Part shown: in pieces, positions 12,972 to 63,948 of the stretch
Position numbering within the stretch: position 1 is the first letter of the stretch
How the letters are laid out: each line of letters begins with the position of its first letter
Assembly: GCA_043814055.1 (NCBI GenBank)
Contig: JBDRKL010000012.1
Coordinates: forward strand, 89,170-153,169
Reading direction: 5' to 3'
Origin: an archaeon
Lineage (GTDB): Archaea; Undinarchaeota; Undinarchaeia; Undinarchaeales; JBDRKL01
Length of the DNA: 64,000 nt
The notes under the pieces: generated by a model
Told to the model about the DNA's origin: nothing
What the model saw: the letters and a program-made list of their open reading frames with translations, nothing else
The model's database searches: none
Translations under genes and position numbers: made by a program

Positions 12972-13063
12972 GCTCTGGGGTCTGCTAGTTCTGAATAGAC
13001 GTGAGTATTGATTATAGAAAGTGTTAAAAGGGTTCGCGGAGAGAATAGTCTAGTTATAACATA

Positions 13064-13182
13064 GGGGGTGTGGTCTAGTTTGGTATGATACTTGCTTTGG
13101 GAGCAAGTGGTCCCCAGTTCAAAGGCGTGCGAAGCGTGACTTAACATGCGCTTGTGCGTGGAAAATCTGGGCACCCCCACCA
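13064..13182 (+). tRNA. tRNA-Pro (anticodon TGG) with a ~42-nt intron in the T-loop and encoded CCA
   Basis: Acceptor GGGGGTG/CACCCCC, D-loop AGTTTGGTA, anticodon arm CTTGC-TTTGGGA-GCAAG, T-stem CCCAG (13113-17)/CTGGG (13167-71) split by an insertion at 13124-13165. Discriminator A then CCA. Confidence 0.7.
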
Positions 13183-13288
13183 CTCCGCCTAGCCGCGGAG
13201 AAAGGCTGTCCCGCATCACACAACACACACTCGTGTGTGTGCATAAATCACCGCAATGCGGTGATTCATGTTTGTGATGCTGCGGGAC
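13183..13288. terminator. Nested long palindrome between the convergent tRNA-Pro and tmk genes, candidate bidirectional terminator or structured RNA
   Basis: CTCCGC..GCGGAG hairpin (13183-13200), then GTCCCGCATCACA...TGTGATGCTGCGGGAC (13208-13288) enclosing CACACACTCGTGTGTGTG and AATCACCGCAATGCGGTGATT. Confidence 0.5.
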
Positions 13289-25846: not shown

Positions 25847-26033
25847 GGATCCGTAGCCTAGTCTGGATAAGGCGACAGCCTTCTAACAACCGCAAAATCG
25901 GTTGACGCTTTGGGTCGCATTCCGCTTCGCGGAAGCGACCCGGCTCGCGCGTTCGCACGCGCTCGCTCGGTCAATTCGAGCAAGTTGGTTGGAAGCCAGC
26001 TGTAAATCAGGGGTTCAAATCCCCTCGGATCCA
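25847..26033 (+). tRNA. tRNA-Arg (anticodon TCT) with a 112-nt intron at canonical position 37/38
   Basis: Acceptor GGATCCG/CGGATCC, D-arm GCCT-AGTCTGGATA-AGGC, anticodon stem ACAGC (25875-79) with loop CTTCTA|A, 3' stem GCTGT at 25999-26003, T-arm AGGGG-TTCAAAT-CCCCT. Intron ~25886-25997. Confidence 0.8.
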
Positions 26034-26047
26034 CTCAAACCTAAAAT

Positions 26048-26297
26048 GGGCCAGTAGCCTAGTCTGGATACGAGGCGGAAGCAAGCTCCCGCTTGTTTCC
26101 AGCTCCGCTGGAAAAGGCGTCAGGCTTCGGACCAGCGGCAAATTCATTTGCTCTGGAAGGATACCTGAAGACCGAGGGTTCAAAACTCCGCCGCTGCGGA
26201 GGATAGCAGGGGGCTTGGTTAAAACCGAGCATTCCGCCAAAAGCGGAAGCCCCCTATAAAATGCAGCGCCGGACTGAAAATCCCTTCTGGCCCACCA
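26048..26297 (+). tRNA. tRNA-Arg (anticodon TCG) with three apparent introns (D-arm, anticodon 37/38, T-loop) and encoded CCA
   Basis: Acceptor GGGCCAG/CTGGCCC, D-stem GCCT, D-loop AGTCTGGATA, then a 44-nt insert (26071-26114) before AGGC-G. Anticodon stem TCAGG (26120-24) with loop CTTCGG, a ~32-nt insert, then A-CCTGA (26163-68). T-stem GAGGG (26174-78) pairs CCCTT (26282-86) across a ~90-nt insert. Confidence 0.6.
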
Positions 26298-26333
26298 TAA
26301 TCATTAAAACCAAGGAAAACCTACGGGAAAACA

Positions 26334-28496
26334 ATGGCAAAGAAAGAAAAGTCAAAAAAAGCGGTAAAGAAGAAGGTAATGCCGAAAACTCTAAAGAAGA
26401 AGGCAGCCATTAAGAAGAAACTAGTAGTGAAGAAGAAAGCTTTGATTAAGAAAAAAATTGTAGTGAAGAAGAAACCAGTGTCTAAGAAGAAAGTGACACC
26501 AAAGAAGAAGGTTTCAAAACCAAAGAAAGCCCTTGCAAAGAAAAAGCTGGTGGTGAAAAAGAAAGCTGCAAAACCGAAAGCCAAAAAGGCAGCGATTAAG
26601 AAGAAACCGGTAAAAGCAAAGAAAACTGTGAAGAAGACAACAGTTAAGAAGAAGGTTTCAATAAAAAAGAAGGCTGTAAAAGCCAAGAAAAAAGCAGCAA
26701 AACCTAAGAAGCCGCCGGAACCAAAAGAAGAGCAAGAACCTGAGAAACCAAATGAACCTACCTATGACCCGTGGCAGGAACTAAAGAATCAGGCACAAGC
26801 AGCGATTGAAGAAGCTGTGAAGACCGCGAAGATTAAGGTTCCATCAGAGGTAAATTTTGCAACTGCGATTGAAGAGCCGCCAAGCGCCAAGATGGGAGAT
26901 GTGGCTTGTAGCATTGCGTTTTCATTGGGAAGAGCATCTAAGAAGAACCCAAGACAGCTTGCGGAACTGCTCATATCAAAAGTAAAGAAGCCGCCAATTT
27001 TCAAGAAGGTTGCGCTCGCAGGAGCGTACATCAATTTCTTTCTGGATCACGATAAGTTCGCAAAGCACATTCTTGCAAAGGTTGTTGACGACGATTATGG
27101 CCGGGGAGGGAAGAAGGGCGACAAGGTAATGGCAGAGTTCTGCCAGGTTAACACGCACAAGGCGTTTCATATTGGGCATATTAGGGGAACCATACTTGGC
27201 GAGACTATTTCACGCATTTTGGAGTACAGCGGGTATGAAGTTGTGAGAGCAAATTACCAAGGGGACATTGGCTCGCACGTTGCAAAGTGGATGTGGTATT
27301 ATAACAAGTTCAAGAGTGGAGAGAGCCCGCATGGCAAGGGGGAAACCTGGCTTGCTAATATTTACCGGGCTGCCACGCAGGAGCTAAGGGAGCACCCTGA
27401 ATACGAGAAAGAGACCAGCGAGATTCTGCAGAAGCTTGAAGCCGGTGAAGATGAAAAACTGATGCAGGCCTGGCGGGAAACTCGGCAGTGGTCGCTTGAT
27501 GAGTATGAGAAAATTTACAAAGAGCTTGACGTGCGATTTGACCGATATTTCTTTGAGAGCGAGATGGGAAACTCTGGCAAGGAAATCGTGGACGAACTGC
27601 TCAAGAAAAAGATTGCAAAGATGAGCGAGGGCGCTATTGTGATAAATTTGGAGAAGTTTGGGCTCGGAACGTATCTTTTGCTTAAGAGCGACGGGACCGC
27701 GCTTTATTCCACCAAGGACCTGGCGCTTGCAAAGGCTAAGTTTGAAGAGTTTGGAATTGATATTTCACTTTATGTTGTTGGATCAGAGCAGCGGCTTTAT
27801 TTCCAGCAGCTGTTCAAGACGCTTGAGCTGATGGGCTTCAAGCGCGCGAAGAAGTGCCACCATCTTGCTTTTGACCTGATAAGCCTGAAGGAAGGCAAGA
27901 TGTCCTCAAGGGAAGGTACTGCCATTTTATATTCTGAGCTGAGAGACGGGATGTTCAAGAGGGCGCTTGAAGAAGTTATGGAAAGAAATCCGGAGATGGA
28001 CCCGCACGAACAGAAGATCATTGCGAATAAAGTTGCGTACGGCGCGATGAAGTTTGACATACTTAACATAAACAACAACAAGACAATATTCTTTGACTGG
28101 GAAAAAGCACTTGAATTTGAGGGCGAGACCGCGCCTTATGTGCAGTACGCCGGAGTTCGATGCAAGAGAATACTTGAGAAGGCTGGAAAAGTGCCTGAGA
28201 CTGGAAAAGTTGACTTCGGAAAGCTGAAGCTTGCAGCAGAGCACGAGCTTGTCAAGATGCTCGCGAGATTCCCTGGGGTTATTGCCACGGCTGCGAAGGA
28301 GTACAAACCGCACTTCATTGCGAATTATGTATATGGGCTAGCTGACAAGTTTAGCACTTTCTATACCGAGGCGCCTATAATGGACGCGGGAGATAAGGCA
28401 ACAAAAGATGCTCGGCTTATGCTGCTAAGCGCAACATATAAAACCCTTGAGAAAGCCCTATATCTGCTCGGAATAGAAATTCCTGAGCGTATGTAA
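26334..28496 (+). CDS. argS: Arginyl-tRNA synthetase with a ~145-aa polylysine N-terminal extension
   Basis: Class I HIGH motif (AFHIGHIRG), KMSK-like GKMSSREG, and a DALR anticodon-binding C-terminus. The N-terminus is KKK(L/I)VVKKK repeats. The antisense ORF 26321..26686 is an artefact of the repeats. Confidence 0.9.
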   Translation: MAKKEKSKKAVKKKVMPKTLKKKAAIKKKLVVKKKALIKKKIVVKKKPVSKKKVTPKKKVSKPKKALAKKKLVVKKKAAKPKAKKAAIKKKPVKAKKTVKKTTVKKKVSIKKKAVKAKKKAAKPKKPPEPKEEQEPEKPNEPTYDPWQELKNQAQAAIEEAVKTAKIKVPSEVNFATAIEEPPSAKMGDVACSIAFSLGRASKKNPRQLAELLISKVKKPPIFKKVALAGAYINFFLDHDKFAKHILAKVVDDDYGRGGKKGDKVMAEFCQVNTHKAFHIGHIRGTILGETISRILEYSGYEVVRANYQGDIGSHVAKWMWYYNKFKSGESPHGKGETWLANIYRAATQELREHPEYEKETSEILQKLEAGEDEKLMQAWRETRQWSLDEYEKIYKELDVRFDRYFFESEMGNSGKEIVDELLKKKIAKMSEGAIVINLEKFGLGTYLLLKSDGTALYSTKDLALAKAKFEEFGIDISLYVVGSEQRLYFQQLFKTLELMGFKRAKKCHHLAFDLISLKEGKMSSREGTAILYSELRDGMFKRALEEVMERNPEMDPHEQKIIANKVAYGAMKFDILNINNNKTIFFDWEKALEFEGETAPYVQYAGVRCKRILEKAGKVPETGKVDFGKLKLAAEHELVKMLARFPGVIATAAKEYKPHFIANYVYGLADKFSTFYTEAPIMDAGDKATKDARLMLLSATYKTLEKALYLLGIEIPERM

Positions 28497-28511
28497 TAGA
28501 GACAAAAGTGT

Positions 28512-28694
28512 GCCAGGGTAGCCTAGTTTGGATAAGGCGACAGCCTCCTAACAGCGGCAAATTCCGCTGGCAAATTGGGCCGCATTCGGCTTTCAGCCGA
28601 AGCGACCCGGCCCGCTGCGCGGGCAAAAGCCAATAGCGGAAAGCTGATGGAAGCAAGCTGTAAGTCGAGGGTTCAAATCCCTCCTCTGGTGCCA
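28512..28694 (+). tRNA. tRNA-Arg (anticodon CCT) with a 105-nt intron at 37/38 and encoded CCA
   Basis: Acceptor GCCAGGG/CTCTGGT (two G-U pairs), D-arm GCCT-AGTTTGGATA-AGGC, anticodon stem ACAGC with loop CTCCTA|A, 3' stem GCTGT (28657-61), T-arm GAGGG-TTCAAAT-CCCTC. Intron 28551-28655. Confidence 0.75.
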
Positions 28695-28699
28695 TAATA

Positions 28700-29182
28700 A
28701 TGACCTTAGTAGACGAATGCAAAATAAGGGACGCAGCGCCTGAAGATGTTGATGCAATCATAGAACTGTACAAGGAAGCCCTAGTCCCGATATGGGACAG
28801 GATACACAGGCCCTATGACCTTGTTAGGCTAAGGAGAACGCTTGAGAAACGGTTTGAAAAAGGGCATAGCGGTCTGGTGGTTGTTAGGGAGAACAAGATT
28901 ATTGGGTGCGTTCTGACCGCACTGCGAACCGGGAAGATATCCAATAAAAAAGTAATGAAAATATCGTCTCTTCTGGTCAAGCCGGAATTTTTTGGGAAAG
29001 GCTTAGGCCAGGAACTCATTAGAATCGTAGAAGACACAGCAAGGCAAAATGGCGTGGAGCGGATAAGACTGAAGTGCGCCTATAAGAACACTGCACTGGA
29101 GTTCTACAACAAAATGGGTTTTCAGGAAGACCAGATAAGCTTTATCAAGGAGCTAAAAACAAAAAAAGCCCCCGTAGTCTAG
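28700..29182 (+). CDS. GNAT family N-acetyltransferase (160 aa)
   Basis: Acetyl-CoA binding motif region (Q/R)xxGxG/A: FGKGLGQELIRIV. Its last ~15 nt overlap the 5' end of tRNA-Arg(GCG). Confidence 0.7.
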   Translation: MTLVDECKIRDAAPEDVDAIIELYKEALVPIWDRIHRPYDLVRLRRTLEKRFEKGHSGLVVVRENKIIGCVLTALRTGKISNKKVMKISSLLVKPEFFGKGLGQELIRIVEDTARQNGVERIRLKCAYKNTALEFYNKMGFQEDQISFIKELKTKKAPVV

Positions 29183-29241
29183 TTTGGATAGGATGTGAGC
29201 TTGCGGAGCTCGAGGCTTGGGTTCAAATCCCGACGGGGGCA
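29168..29241 (+). tRNA. tRNA-Arg (anticodon GCG), intron-less
   Basis: Acceptor GCCCCCG/CGGGGGC, D-arm GTCT-AGTTTGGATA-GGAT, anticodon arm TGAGC-TTGCGGA-GCTCG, T-arm TTGGG-TTCAAAT-CCCGA, discriminator A. Confidence 0.8.
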
Positions 29242-41604: not shown

Positions 41605-42036
41605 TTAAATTCTAATAAATTTAGGCAGTTTTTTCTTGTCGTGCTTTCTCAGCCCGCCTGTGAACATTTTTGGAATGTGCTTTAGCTCGTGGATTAGGAC
41701 TTCGTCCTGCTTGTGCTGCGGGAGCTTGTCAAAGCGCTCGGAAAGAACTTCAATTACGTAGCGCGGATTCATATAGAGCGCGAGCTGCCAGATTTTTGGA
41801 AAGCTCCAGATTCGGGCGAGGATTCTTTCAGAGGTTGAGCCGTGGGAGCGGAAGCAATAAATGCGCTCTGGGGTTACGTTTGGAAAGTCCTCGGCTAGGT
41901 CTATTATTCTCCTTTTGATATCCGGGGCGTGGATGTATTTGATTACCATAAAACTAAATAAGTGGCATGACCTTTTAAGCTTATATGGAAATCCTGTACT
42001 GGAACAAGGACTCAGCGGCGCTGAATATTGTGTCAC
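41605..42036 (-). CDS. Putative zinc metallopeptidase-like protein (HExxH, DUF45/SprT-like)
   Basis: The HELKH motif is the only recognisable element. The true start may be an internal Met. Confidence 0.3.
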   Translation of the reverse strand: MTQYSAPLSPCSSTGFPYKLKRSCHLFSFMVIKYIHAPDIKRRIIDLAEDFPNVTPERIYCFRSHGSTSERILARIWSFPKIWQLALYMNPRYVIEVLSERFDKLPQHKQDEVLIHELKHIPKMFTGGLRKHDKKKLPKFIRI

Positions 42037-43740: not shown

Positions 43741-43818
43741 CTAATTGGGGATGTCTAAACTAGCGAAAATGTCTTTAATAAGCAAGATTATAGAATAGAC
43801 ACTCGGGAGAATAATATT

Positions 43819-43915
43819 AGCCCCGTGGTGTAGTGGCCAAGCATACGAGCCTCTGGAGGGTTTTAAAACTCAGGGTGAGCTGGTGACAACGGTTCGAATC
43901 CGTTCGGGGCTACCA
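43819..43915 (+). tRNA. tRNA-Gln (anticodon CTG) with a ~21-nt intron at 37/38 and encoded CCA
   Basis: Acceptor AGCCCCG/CGGGGCT, D-arm GTGT-AGTGGCCAA-GCAT, anticodon stem CGAGC with loop CTCTGG|(intron AGGGTTTTAAAACTCAGGGTG)|A, 3' stem GCTGG (one G-G mismatch), T-arm AACGG-TTCGAAT-CCGTT. Confidence 0.6.
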
Positions 43916-44095
43916 TAAAAACATAACAAGGTGACTTCGCGAACAAAGTGAGCGAATGTCGCCTAAAGCGCCAGCCGATTTCGCGGCTGTTCGCCAATCC
44001 GTTCGGGGCTACCATAACAGATAGAGGCTTCGCGACTAAAAGGAGCGAATGCATCCGGCCTAACTCCGCGGCCAGGCGGAGCGTGTGGGGCTACC
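43916..44095. repeat. Two tandem units made of a ~70-nt structured repeat plus a duplicated tRNA-Gln 3' end (att-scar-like)
   Basis: A 22-nt exact copy of the tRNA 3' end AATCCGTTCGGGGCTACCATAA lies at 43996-44017, and a 10-nt copy GGGGCTACCA at 44086-44095. The spacers carry the CTTCGCGA(AC)..AAAG(T)GAGCGAA and CTCCGCG..CAGGCGGAG motifs shared with 3957-4023. Confidence 0.6.
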
Positions 44096-44106
44096 AAAAA
44101 ACTAAA

Positions 44107-63765: not shown

Positions 63766-63948
63766 AGCGGGGTAGGGCAGCCTGGAGTGCCCGCGAGGCT
63801 CATAACAACCTTTTTCCGACCTTCGGCCGCAAAAAGCTTGACCAAAAAGAAATCGCTTTGCGATTTCGTGCCACTGCGCGGCAATTAAAAATCTGCGCAG
63901 AGGGTTGAGAGACACCTCGAGGTCGATGGTTCAAGTCCATCCCCCGCT
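63766..63948 (+). tRNA. tRNA-Met or Ile2 (anticodon CAT) with a ~109-nt intron at 37/38
   Basis: Acceptor AGCGGGG/CCCCGCT, D-arm GGGC-AGCCTGGAGT-GCCC, anticodon stem CGAGG with loop CTCATA|A, 3' stem CCTCG (63914-18), T-arm GATGG-TTCAAGT-CCATC. The anticodon stem lacks the GGG/CCC of initiator tRNA. Confidence 0.7.

Follow-up and report, generated by a model that had tools for sequence, protein, structure and literature searches.

In archaea the splice sites of an interrupted tRNA are borne by the BHB motif, in which a 4-bp helix lies between two 3-nt bulges that hold the sites of cleavage, and at the canonical intron position the anticodon's first two nucleotides are found inside this helix (PMC4090602). 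Among the non-canonical positions at which introns recur in archaeal tRNAs is 59/60 (PMC4090602). The closest described case is that of ARMAN-2, a member of the DPANN superphylum, where the pre-tRNA-Cys(GCA) has an intron at 59/60 that is cleaved in vitro by the cognate tRNA splicing endonuclease, EndA, and where the pre-tRNA-Pro(GGG) is interrupted by introns at 53/54 and at 59/60, in association with a BHB of the hBHBh' type (PMC3239211). The epsilon2 EndA has been reported from ARMAN-1, ARMAN-2 and Candidatus Mancarchaeum only, and the DPANN lineages with an L3-loop EndA possess more disrupted tRNA genes, some of which are suspected to have been missed (PMC5829648). In Pyrobaculum islandicum a proline tRNA with the UGG anticodon is interrupted at 25/26, 37/38 and 56/57 (Sugahara et al. 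2007, 2008, reviewed in PMC4090602). The paper describing the Undinarchaeota makes no mention of introns.

How, then, does an interrupted proline tRNA gene from an Undinarchaeota-like archaeon compare with these systems? The gene lies in a stretch of 64 kb, all of which was analysed and which is referred to as the window; the TopoVI-A protein encoded there is 100% identical to a MAG protein on a 153-kb contig and 74-76% identical to Candidatus Undinarchaeales proteins and the tmk product is 63% identical to an Undinarchaeales protein. With ARMAN-2 the gene shares the DPANN superphylum, the T-loop position 59/60 and a proline tRNA, but ARMAN-2 belongs to the Micrarchaeota and its tRNA is the GGG isoacceptor with two adjacent introns, whereas the window gene has a UGG anticodon, a single 42-nt intron and, again unlike ARMAN-2, one non-Watson-Crick pair in the central helix. 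The likeness to the Crenarchaeota, and to the Thermoproteales among them, is in the use of BHB introns at recurrent non-canonical sites that include 59/60, in the occurrence of several introns per gene and in the high proportion of interrupted tRNA genes. Those organisms, in contrast, are hyperthermophilic TACK archaea with an (alpha-beta)2 EndA, and many of their introns form near-identical families, which is evidence of transposition, whereas the proline intron is without a detectable relative. The resemblance extends to the canonical hBHBh' intron at 37/38, with its 5-bp stem, its 4-bp helix made by pairing loop nucleotides 1-4 with the intron's 3' part, and its two 3-nt bulges cut after the second nucleotide, except that in tRNA-Pro the motif is built on the T-arm and not on the anticodon arm. 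The T-loop intron of tRNA-Pro is real and, with its site already documented in other archaea, ordinary for the field.

The tRNA-Pro(UGG) gene and its insert

The initial annotation described the locus as a tRNA-Pro(UGG) gene that encodes its CCA and has an intron inside the T-loop: the T-stem halves CCCAG and CTGGG are perfect but stand 49 nt apart rather than the normal 7, and the loop is opened by TTCAAA (13118-13123) and closed by GAAAAT (13161-13166). The sequence reads in just this way (Table 1), through to a 3' end of CACCCCC-A-CCA at 13182. When the 42 nt of the insert are taken out ARAGORN returns a 77-nt tRNA-Pro(tgg), with a perfect cloverleaf ending in CCA and an intact 7-nt T-loop. 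For the unspliced locus there is no ARAGORN call, with or without intron mode, and no Rfam match at the gathering score of 29; a permissive Rfam search aligns the 5' part alone, from 13064 to 13116, at 21.2 bits against that gathering score. An alternative cloverleaf without an intron, which would have spoken against the interrupted gene, is provided neither by ARAGORN in either mode nor by Rfam, and the intron reading stands. Besides tRNA, no other Rfam family matches the locus, even at E <= 10. A self-splicing or homing intron of group I or group II was also considered and rejected, in that the 42 nt hold no ORF and match no Rfam intron model.

Table 1. Coordinates within the window of the tRNA-Pro(UGG) gene, of the elements of its intron and of the other tRNA genes.
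Feature	Position	Strand	Description	Basis or occurrence
tRNA-Pro(UGG) gene	13064-13182	+	GGGGGTG TG GTCT AGTTTGGTA TGAT A CTTGC TTTGGGA GCAAG TGGTC CCCAG TTCAAA [42 nt] T CTGGG CACCCCC A CCA; 42-nt intron at 59/60	
Exon 1	13064-13123	+	tRNA positions 1-59: acceptor 5' strand, D-arm, anticodon arm, variable loop, T-stem 5' strand, U54-A59	ARAGORN cloverleaf of spliced form
Anticodon TGG (Pro)	13098-13100	+	Loop TTTGGGA, stem CTTGC/GCAAG	
BHB outer helix h, 5' strand (T-stem CCCAG)	13113-13117	+	Pairs with CTGGG at 13167-13171 (CUGGG in RNA)	
BHB central helix H, 5' strand (U54 U55 C56 A57)	13118-13121	+	Against GGAA: U-A, U-A, C-G, A.G mismatch	
5' bulge B1 (A58 A59|G)	13122-13124	+	5' splice site after 13123	
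Intron, 42 nt, at 59/60	13124-13165	+	GGCGTGCGAAGCGTGACTTAACATGCGCTTGTGCGTGGAAAA	Missing in L085/L125, L126, L127, L128, L133, L008
Intron hairpin	13125-13159	+	h' GCGTGCGA (13125-13132) / TTGTGCGT (13152-13159), 8 bp, 4 G.U	MFE folds
Inner intron helix	13134-13138 / 13145-13149		GCGTG / CATGC, loop ACTTAA	
BHB central helix H, 3' strand (GGAA)	13160-13163	+	Intronic	
3' bulge B2 (A A|U60)	13164-13166	+	3' splice site after 13165	
Exon 2	13166-13182	+	U60, T-stem 3' strand, acceptor 3' strand, discriminator A73, CCA at 13180-13182	
tRNA-Arg(UCU)	25847-26033		112-nt intron, 37/38	
tRNA-Arg(UCG)	26048-26297	+	Three introns: 26071-26114 (21/22); 26132-26163 (anticodon region); 26185-26280 (59/60, 96 nt)	
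tRNA-Arg(CCU)	28512-28694		105-nt intron, 37/38	
tRNA-Arg(GCG)	29168-29241		No intron	
tRNA-Gln(CUG)	43819-43915		21-nt intron, 37/38	
Initiator tRNA-Met(CAU)	63766 to about 63950		109-nt intron 63805-63913, 37/38	

Two further features are found on either side of the gene. Between its 3' end and that of the convergent tmk gene, at 13208-13288, there is a very stable branched hairpin (the segment 13183-13305 folds at -57.8 kcal/mol, z = -5.8), which has no Rfam match and could be either a terminator acting in both directions or a small RNA. Upstream, the TATA-like 10-mer GATTATAGAA is present at 13010-13019, 45-54 nt before tRNA-Pro, and again at 43786-43795, 24-33 nt before tRNA-Gln. As promoter evidence this 10-mer was set aside: its significance is doubtful because a third exact copy is located within a coding region (22969), and it shows no enrichment once a single mismatch is tolerated.

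Presence and absence of the intron among relatives

The nature of the insert is most easily appreciated from an orthologue in which it is missing. This is the tRNA-Pro(UGG) gene of a Candidatus Undinarchaeota archaeon (L085, CAZWSR010000001.1), which is intronless, matches the spliced product of the window gene at 76 of 77 nucleotides, the sole difference being at tRNA position 9 in exon 1, and reaches 65.8 bits against the Rfam tRNA model RF00005. Across the junction it reads GTTCAAA|TCTGGG. The window aligns to it by blastn in two pieces, the first ending at 13123 and the second resuming over 13163-13182, where the 3-nt overlap with the last AAA of the intron arises because the junction is ambiguous along an A run. 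As these pieces flank 13124-13165, the 42 nt are, by sequence comparison, a clean insertion into an otherwise conserved gene. On sequence the junction can be placed anywhere from 56/57 to 59/60, with the same product throughout.

An exon-pattern scan of species-representative genomes gave at least 120 loci, mostly from the Nitrososphaerota, and among the matches listed (at least 120 tRNA-Pro(UGG) genes, with L085 as one of them) the T-loop is uninterrupted in all. The corresponding scan of JGI metagenomes gave one contig (L125), which is intronless and the same as L085 over the region read. An intron-bearing allele of tRNA-Pro is found in none of the matches listed from either the species-representative genomes or the JGI metagenomes.

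Further relatives were reached through the neighbouring tmk gene (L126, L127, L128, L130 and L133), while the TopoVI-A route to synteny led to loci where the downstream genes differ. Counting L125 together with L085, tRNA-Pro(UGG) is intronless in six relatives (Table 1). The single tRNA-Pro(UGG) of the relatives adjoins genes for tmk and an AsnC-family regulator, and the same neighbours are present in the window. The window gene is inverted relative to tmk, such that the two are convergent, whereas in L126, L127 and L128 tRNA-Pro is on the same strand as tmk and in L085 there is yet another arrangement of the pair; by this gene order, local rearrangement has occurred around the tRNA-Pro gene. 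The encoded CCA of tRNA-Pro is common to the window and L085 but not to the other relatives.

The absence of the T-loop intron does not mean that all of these relatives have uninterrupted genes. For instance, the tRNA-Pro(UGG) of L130 (2766-2868) is interrupted in the D-loop, at 20/21 or 21/22, by an intron of 31 nt (GGTA[ACTGCAAGCAAAGCTTGCTTGCGTCAGAAAA]TGAT, with the intron in brackets), and yet its exons are identical to those of the intronless L126 gene and the two loci are collinear with 83% DNA identity. In L127 the genes for tRNA-Arg(UCG) and tRNA-Arg(UCU) are intronless, whereas in the window they contain three introns and one intron, respectively. In the same locus, a gene that ARAGORN calls Gly(tcc), at 145-238, is on by-hand reading a tRNA-Arg(CCU) with an 18-nt canonical intron. 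Because the relatives are either intronless or differently interrupted, the T-loop intron in the window is probably, and most simply, a recent gain in its lineage; more generally the gain or loss of introns looks recent in the group, whose intron content these comparisons indicate to be fluid.

The splice site as a predicted BHB motif on the T-arm

The pairing of the insert with the T-arm was assessed with a scripted BHB template, made up of a 5-bp stem (h), a central helix (H) in which loop nucleotides 1-4 pair with intron nucleotides n-5 to n-2, a 3-nt bulge on each strand that is cut after its second nucleotide, and a helix within the intron (h'). The template agrees with the published definition of the motif (PMC4090602). 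As a control, it recovers, for tRNA-Arg(UCU), tRNA-Arg(CCU) and tRNA-Gln(CUG), the 37/38 junctions that yield canonical tRNAs when the introns are removed. On the T-arm of tRNA-Pro it returns an h' of eight contiguous pairs, GCGUGCGA/UUGUGCGU, in which four of the eight are G.U and which abuts the bulges directly. The Pro intron has the features of the hBHBh' type, that is, a 3-4-3 BHB, slightly relaxed, with outer helices on both sides. The relaxation in the modelled motif amounts to three Watson-Crick pairs together with A.G in H. This h(5)-H(4)-B(3) arrangement that was predicted for the precursor accommodates both of the T-loop introns in the window, that of tRNA-Pro with its A.G mismatch.

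The ambiguity of the junction along the A run is resolved in favour of 59/60 because the BHB geometry selects that register. In the folded model the splice site is thereby the T-arm counterpart of 37/38, and what makes 59/60 a geometric copy of the canonical position is that a 5-bp stem with a 7-nt loop matches the shape of the anticodon arm. The BHB conformer of the Pro T-arm has a calculated energy of -20.3 kcal/mol, which is 2.9 above the MFE of -23.2, and in the MFE structure the three H pairs are open. None of 200 shuffles of the T-arm segment folds as well as the real sequence (z = -3.3), and only 0.3% of 42-nt shuffles give at least three in-register pairs with U54-C56 in combination with an abutting helix of 4 bp or more, where the real helix has 8 bp. 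On the opposite strand the G.U pairs of h' become C.A mismatches, so that this G.U-rich helix cannot form there and the structure is specific to RNA of the + strand, an argument that selection has acted there on the RNA.

Taken with the intronless orthologues, the insert is very probably a BHB intron at 59/60, with the T-stem serving as an outer helix and with excision by EndA followed by ligation of the RtcB type. In this process the gene would be transcribed into a precursor whose T-stem stays intact as one outer helix, with U54-U55-C56 pairing to the GAA close to the intron's 3' end to give the central helix and the remainder of the intron forming a hairpin as the second outer helix. The two 3-nt bulges, A58 A59|G and A A|U60, would then present the splice sites, EndA would cut both of them, and an RtcB-type ligase would join the exons into a 77-nt tRNA that already has its CCA.

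Interrupted tRNA genes in the window

The tRNA set of the window was assembled from a custom acceptor/T-arm scan together with the standard tools, ARAGORN and Rfam. There are seven tRNA genes, all of which are canonical after splicing; introns are present in six of them, eight in total with two at 59/60, and four of the seven genes encode CCA. ARAGORN reports two of the seven, one of which is miscalled, and Rfam at its gathering score three. The initiator tRNA-Met is overlooked by both and is detected by the custom scan alone. The miscalled gene is the one at 43819-43915, which ARAGORN labels Pro(tgg) and which was rejected as a second tRNA-Pro(UGG), since removal of its 21-nt intron at 37/38 turns it into tRNA-Gln(CUG). 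The 64-kb window has no second tRNA-Pro.

The tRNA-Arg genes form a group of their own. Those for UCU, UCG, CCU and GCG (25847-29241) flank the arginyl-tRNA synthetase gene at 26334-28496, an organisation that is likewise found in L127. The introns of Arg(UCU) and Arg(CCU), of 112 and 105 nt, are homologous and unusually long, and have in common the hairpin module GGGYCGCATTC...GAAGCGACCC; inspection by eye revealed no C/D-box motifs in them.

The neighbourhood of tRNA-Gln contains repeats. The last 19 nt of this tRNA, from A58 to CCA, followed by TAA (AATCCGTTCGGGGCTACCATAA), recur as an exact repeat at 43996-44017, 99 nt downstream, and as a degenerate one at 44078-44099, and the spacer is repeated too, with CTTCGCGAACAAAGTGAGCGAATG at 43935 and 44028 (83% identical). 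The repeats over 43897-44099 look like fossil attachment sites or a tandem duplication of the tRNA 3' end, and the duplicated ends may hint at the integration of an element. An ORF resembling a phage metallopeptidase lies at 41605-42036 on the minus strand, about 1.8 kb upstream.

Could the 42 nt have simply inactivated the tRNA-Pro gene, leaving an unspliced pseudogene with Pro UGG decoding taken over by another copy or by isoacceptors elsewhere? Such an outcome would sit well with the fact that the standard tRNA finders miss the locus, and also with the Pfam survey, in which none of the 50 window ORFs covered matches EndA (tRNA_int_endo) or RtcB, although these genes may lie elsewhere in the genome. 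It is nonetheless a very improbable one. A gene that had been released from function would not be expected to keep undecayed exons and an intact cloverleaf, 76 of 77 nucleotides of which are those of intronless L085, nor to have acquired an insert with a BHB in exact register and a strand-specific helix. The tmk and AsnC-family neighbours are, moreover, those of the single tRNA-Pro(UGG) of the relatives, and the window offers no other tRNA-Pro to replace it. A working splicing system is implied by the five other tRNA genes in the window that are interrupted in a splice-competent manner, and the reading of the insert as a BHB intron is the one retained.

The companion intron in tRNA-Arg(UCG)

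The second intron at 59/60 in the window is that of tRNA-Arg(UCG), a gene whose anticodon-region intron has an ambiguous junction, from 37/38 to 40/41, and which becomes a canonical tRNA-Arg(tcg) when all three of its introns are removed. In its T-loop intron the central helix is UUCA/UGAA, with four of four pairs Watson-Crick, B1 is AA|A and B2 is AA|U, and the BHB conformer (-50.6 kcal/mol) is within 0.4 of the MFE (-51.0). The initial annotation had noted that the same site is used in the two tRNAs, and this is borne out, with the Arg(UCG) intron, like that of tRNA-Pro, ending GAAAA|T and with one BHB template fitting both. It had proceeded from there to a lineage-specific splice site or a mobile intron inserted at a conserved location. 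The former gives way to the earlier record of 59/60 in archaea (PMC4090602), ARMAN-2 included (PMC3239211).

What of the latter, a single family of mobile introns that homes or transposes to the T-loop site, of which the Pro and Arg(UCG) introns would be copies? The common position and the common GAAAA|U end are what such a family would display, there is a precedent in the Thermoproteales for transposition of introns between tRNA genes (PMC4090602), and some of the tRNA-Arg introns in the window are indeed homologous to one another. The kinship of introns was measured by pairwise local alignments with shuffle controls and by blastn-short searches of the window and nine related loci. The Pro and Arg(UCG) introns at 59/60, of 42 and 96 nt, have no more similarity than their shuffled controls (z = -0.4), and against every other intron in the window, that of the initiator tRNA-Met among them, and the D-loop intron of L130 the Pro intron gives z values of -0.6 to 2.4, with no resemblance to any. 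No second copy of it was found by blastn-short in the window or the nine related loci, and 42 nt are too short for a homing endonuclease. Relatedness is confined to the tRNA-Arg introns, between UCU and CCU (z = 18) and between CCU and the anticodon-region intron of UCG (z = 7), and for these a duplication of tRNA-Arg genes would explain the kinship equally well.

The likeness in the 3' ends, which on comparison of the two introns does not reach beyond chance elsewhere, follows in the BHB model from the demands of the motif itself. The GAA of GAAAAU pairs with U54-U55-C56, the next AA is in the 3' bulge and the U is U60, so that the shared end is explained by pairing and bulge without common descent. 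Since the exon strand of the central helix is the conserved UUCA, introns at 59/60 must end in (N)GAA-NN. A mobile family is thus as remote an explanation as a pseudogene, and the two T-loop introns are better viewed as separate BHB introns that comply with the same geometry.

Least probable is an artefact of assembly or binning, in which the 42 nt would be a chimeric join or mis-assembly within the tRNA gene of a MAG, for although the window does come from a MAG (the one with NCBI proteins MFH1424984.1 and MFH1424988.1) and the intron-bearing allele is absent among the matches listed from two public collections, neither an in-register BHB with an 8-bp helix nor the restoration of a perfect tRNA on removal is expected of a random join, and the contig extends over 153 kb with seven further splice-competent introns in the window.

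Implications

The Pro intron reveals no new splice site, mechanism or mobile element. Its main message is for gene inventories: with ARAGORN reporting two of the seven tRNA genes in the window, one of them wrongly, and Rfam three, the tRNA sets of DPANN MAGs are likely to be undercounted wherever interrupted genes are missed, a point on which a similar warning has been given (PMC5829648). With this locus, the archaea in which introns in the T-arm are tolerated come to include an Undinarchaeota-like lineage, and this tolerance implies that the splicing endonuclease of the lineage would accept a slightly relaxed BHB at a non-canonical site.

The presence of the intron in one orthologue and its absence in others provides dated examples of intron gain or loss. 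A broader and more tentative proposal, which falls a little short of being probable, is that this sub-lineage of the Undinarchaeota is in the midst of, or has recently passed through, a burst of tRNA-intron gain of the kind associated with the Thermoproteales. If this were true, the clean pairs of genes with and without an intron could make the mechanism of intron gain in archaeal tRNAs tractable, and might also be used to ask whether an intron in the T-arm shields a tRNA gene against integrating elements.
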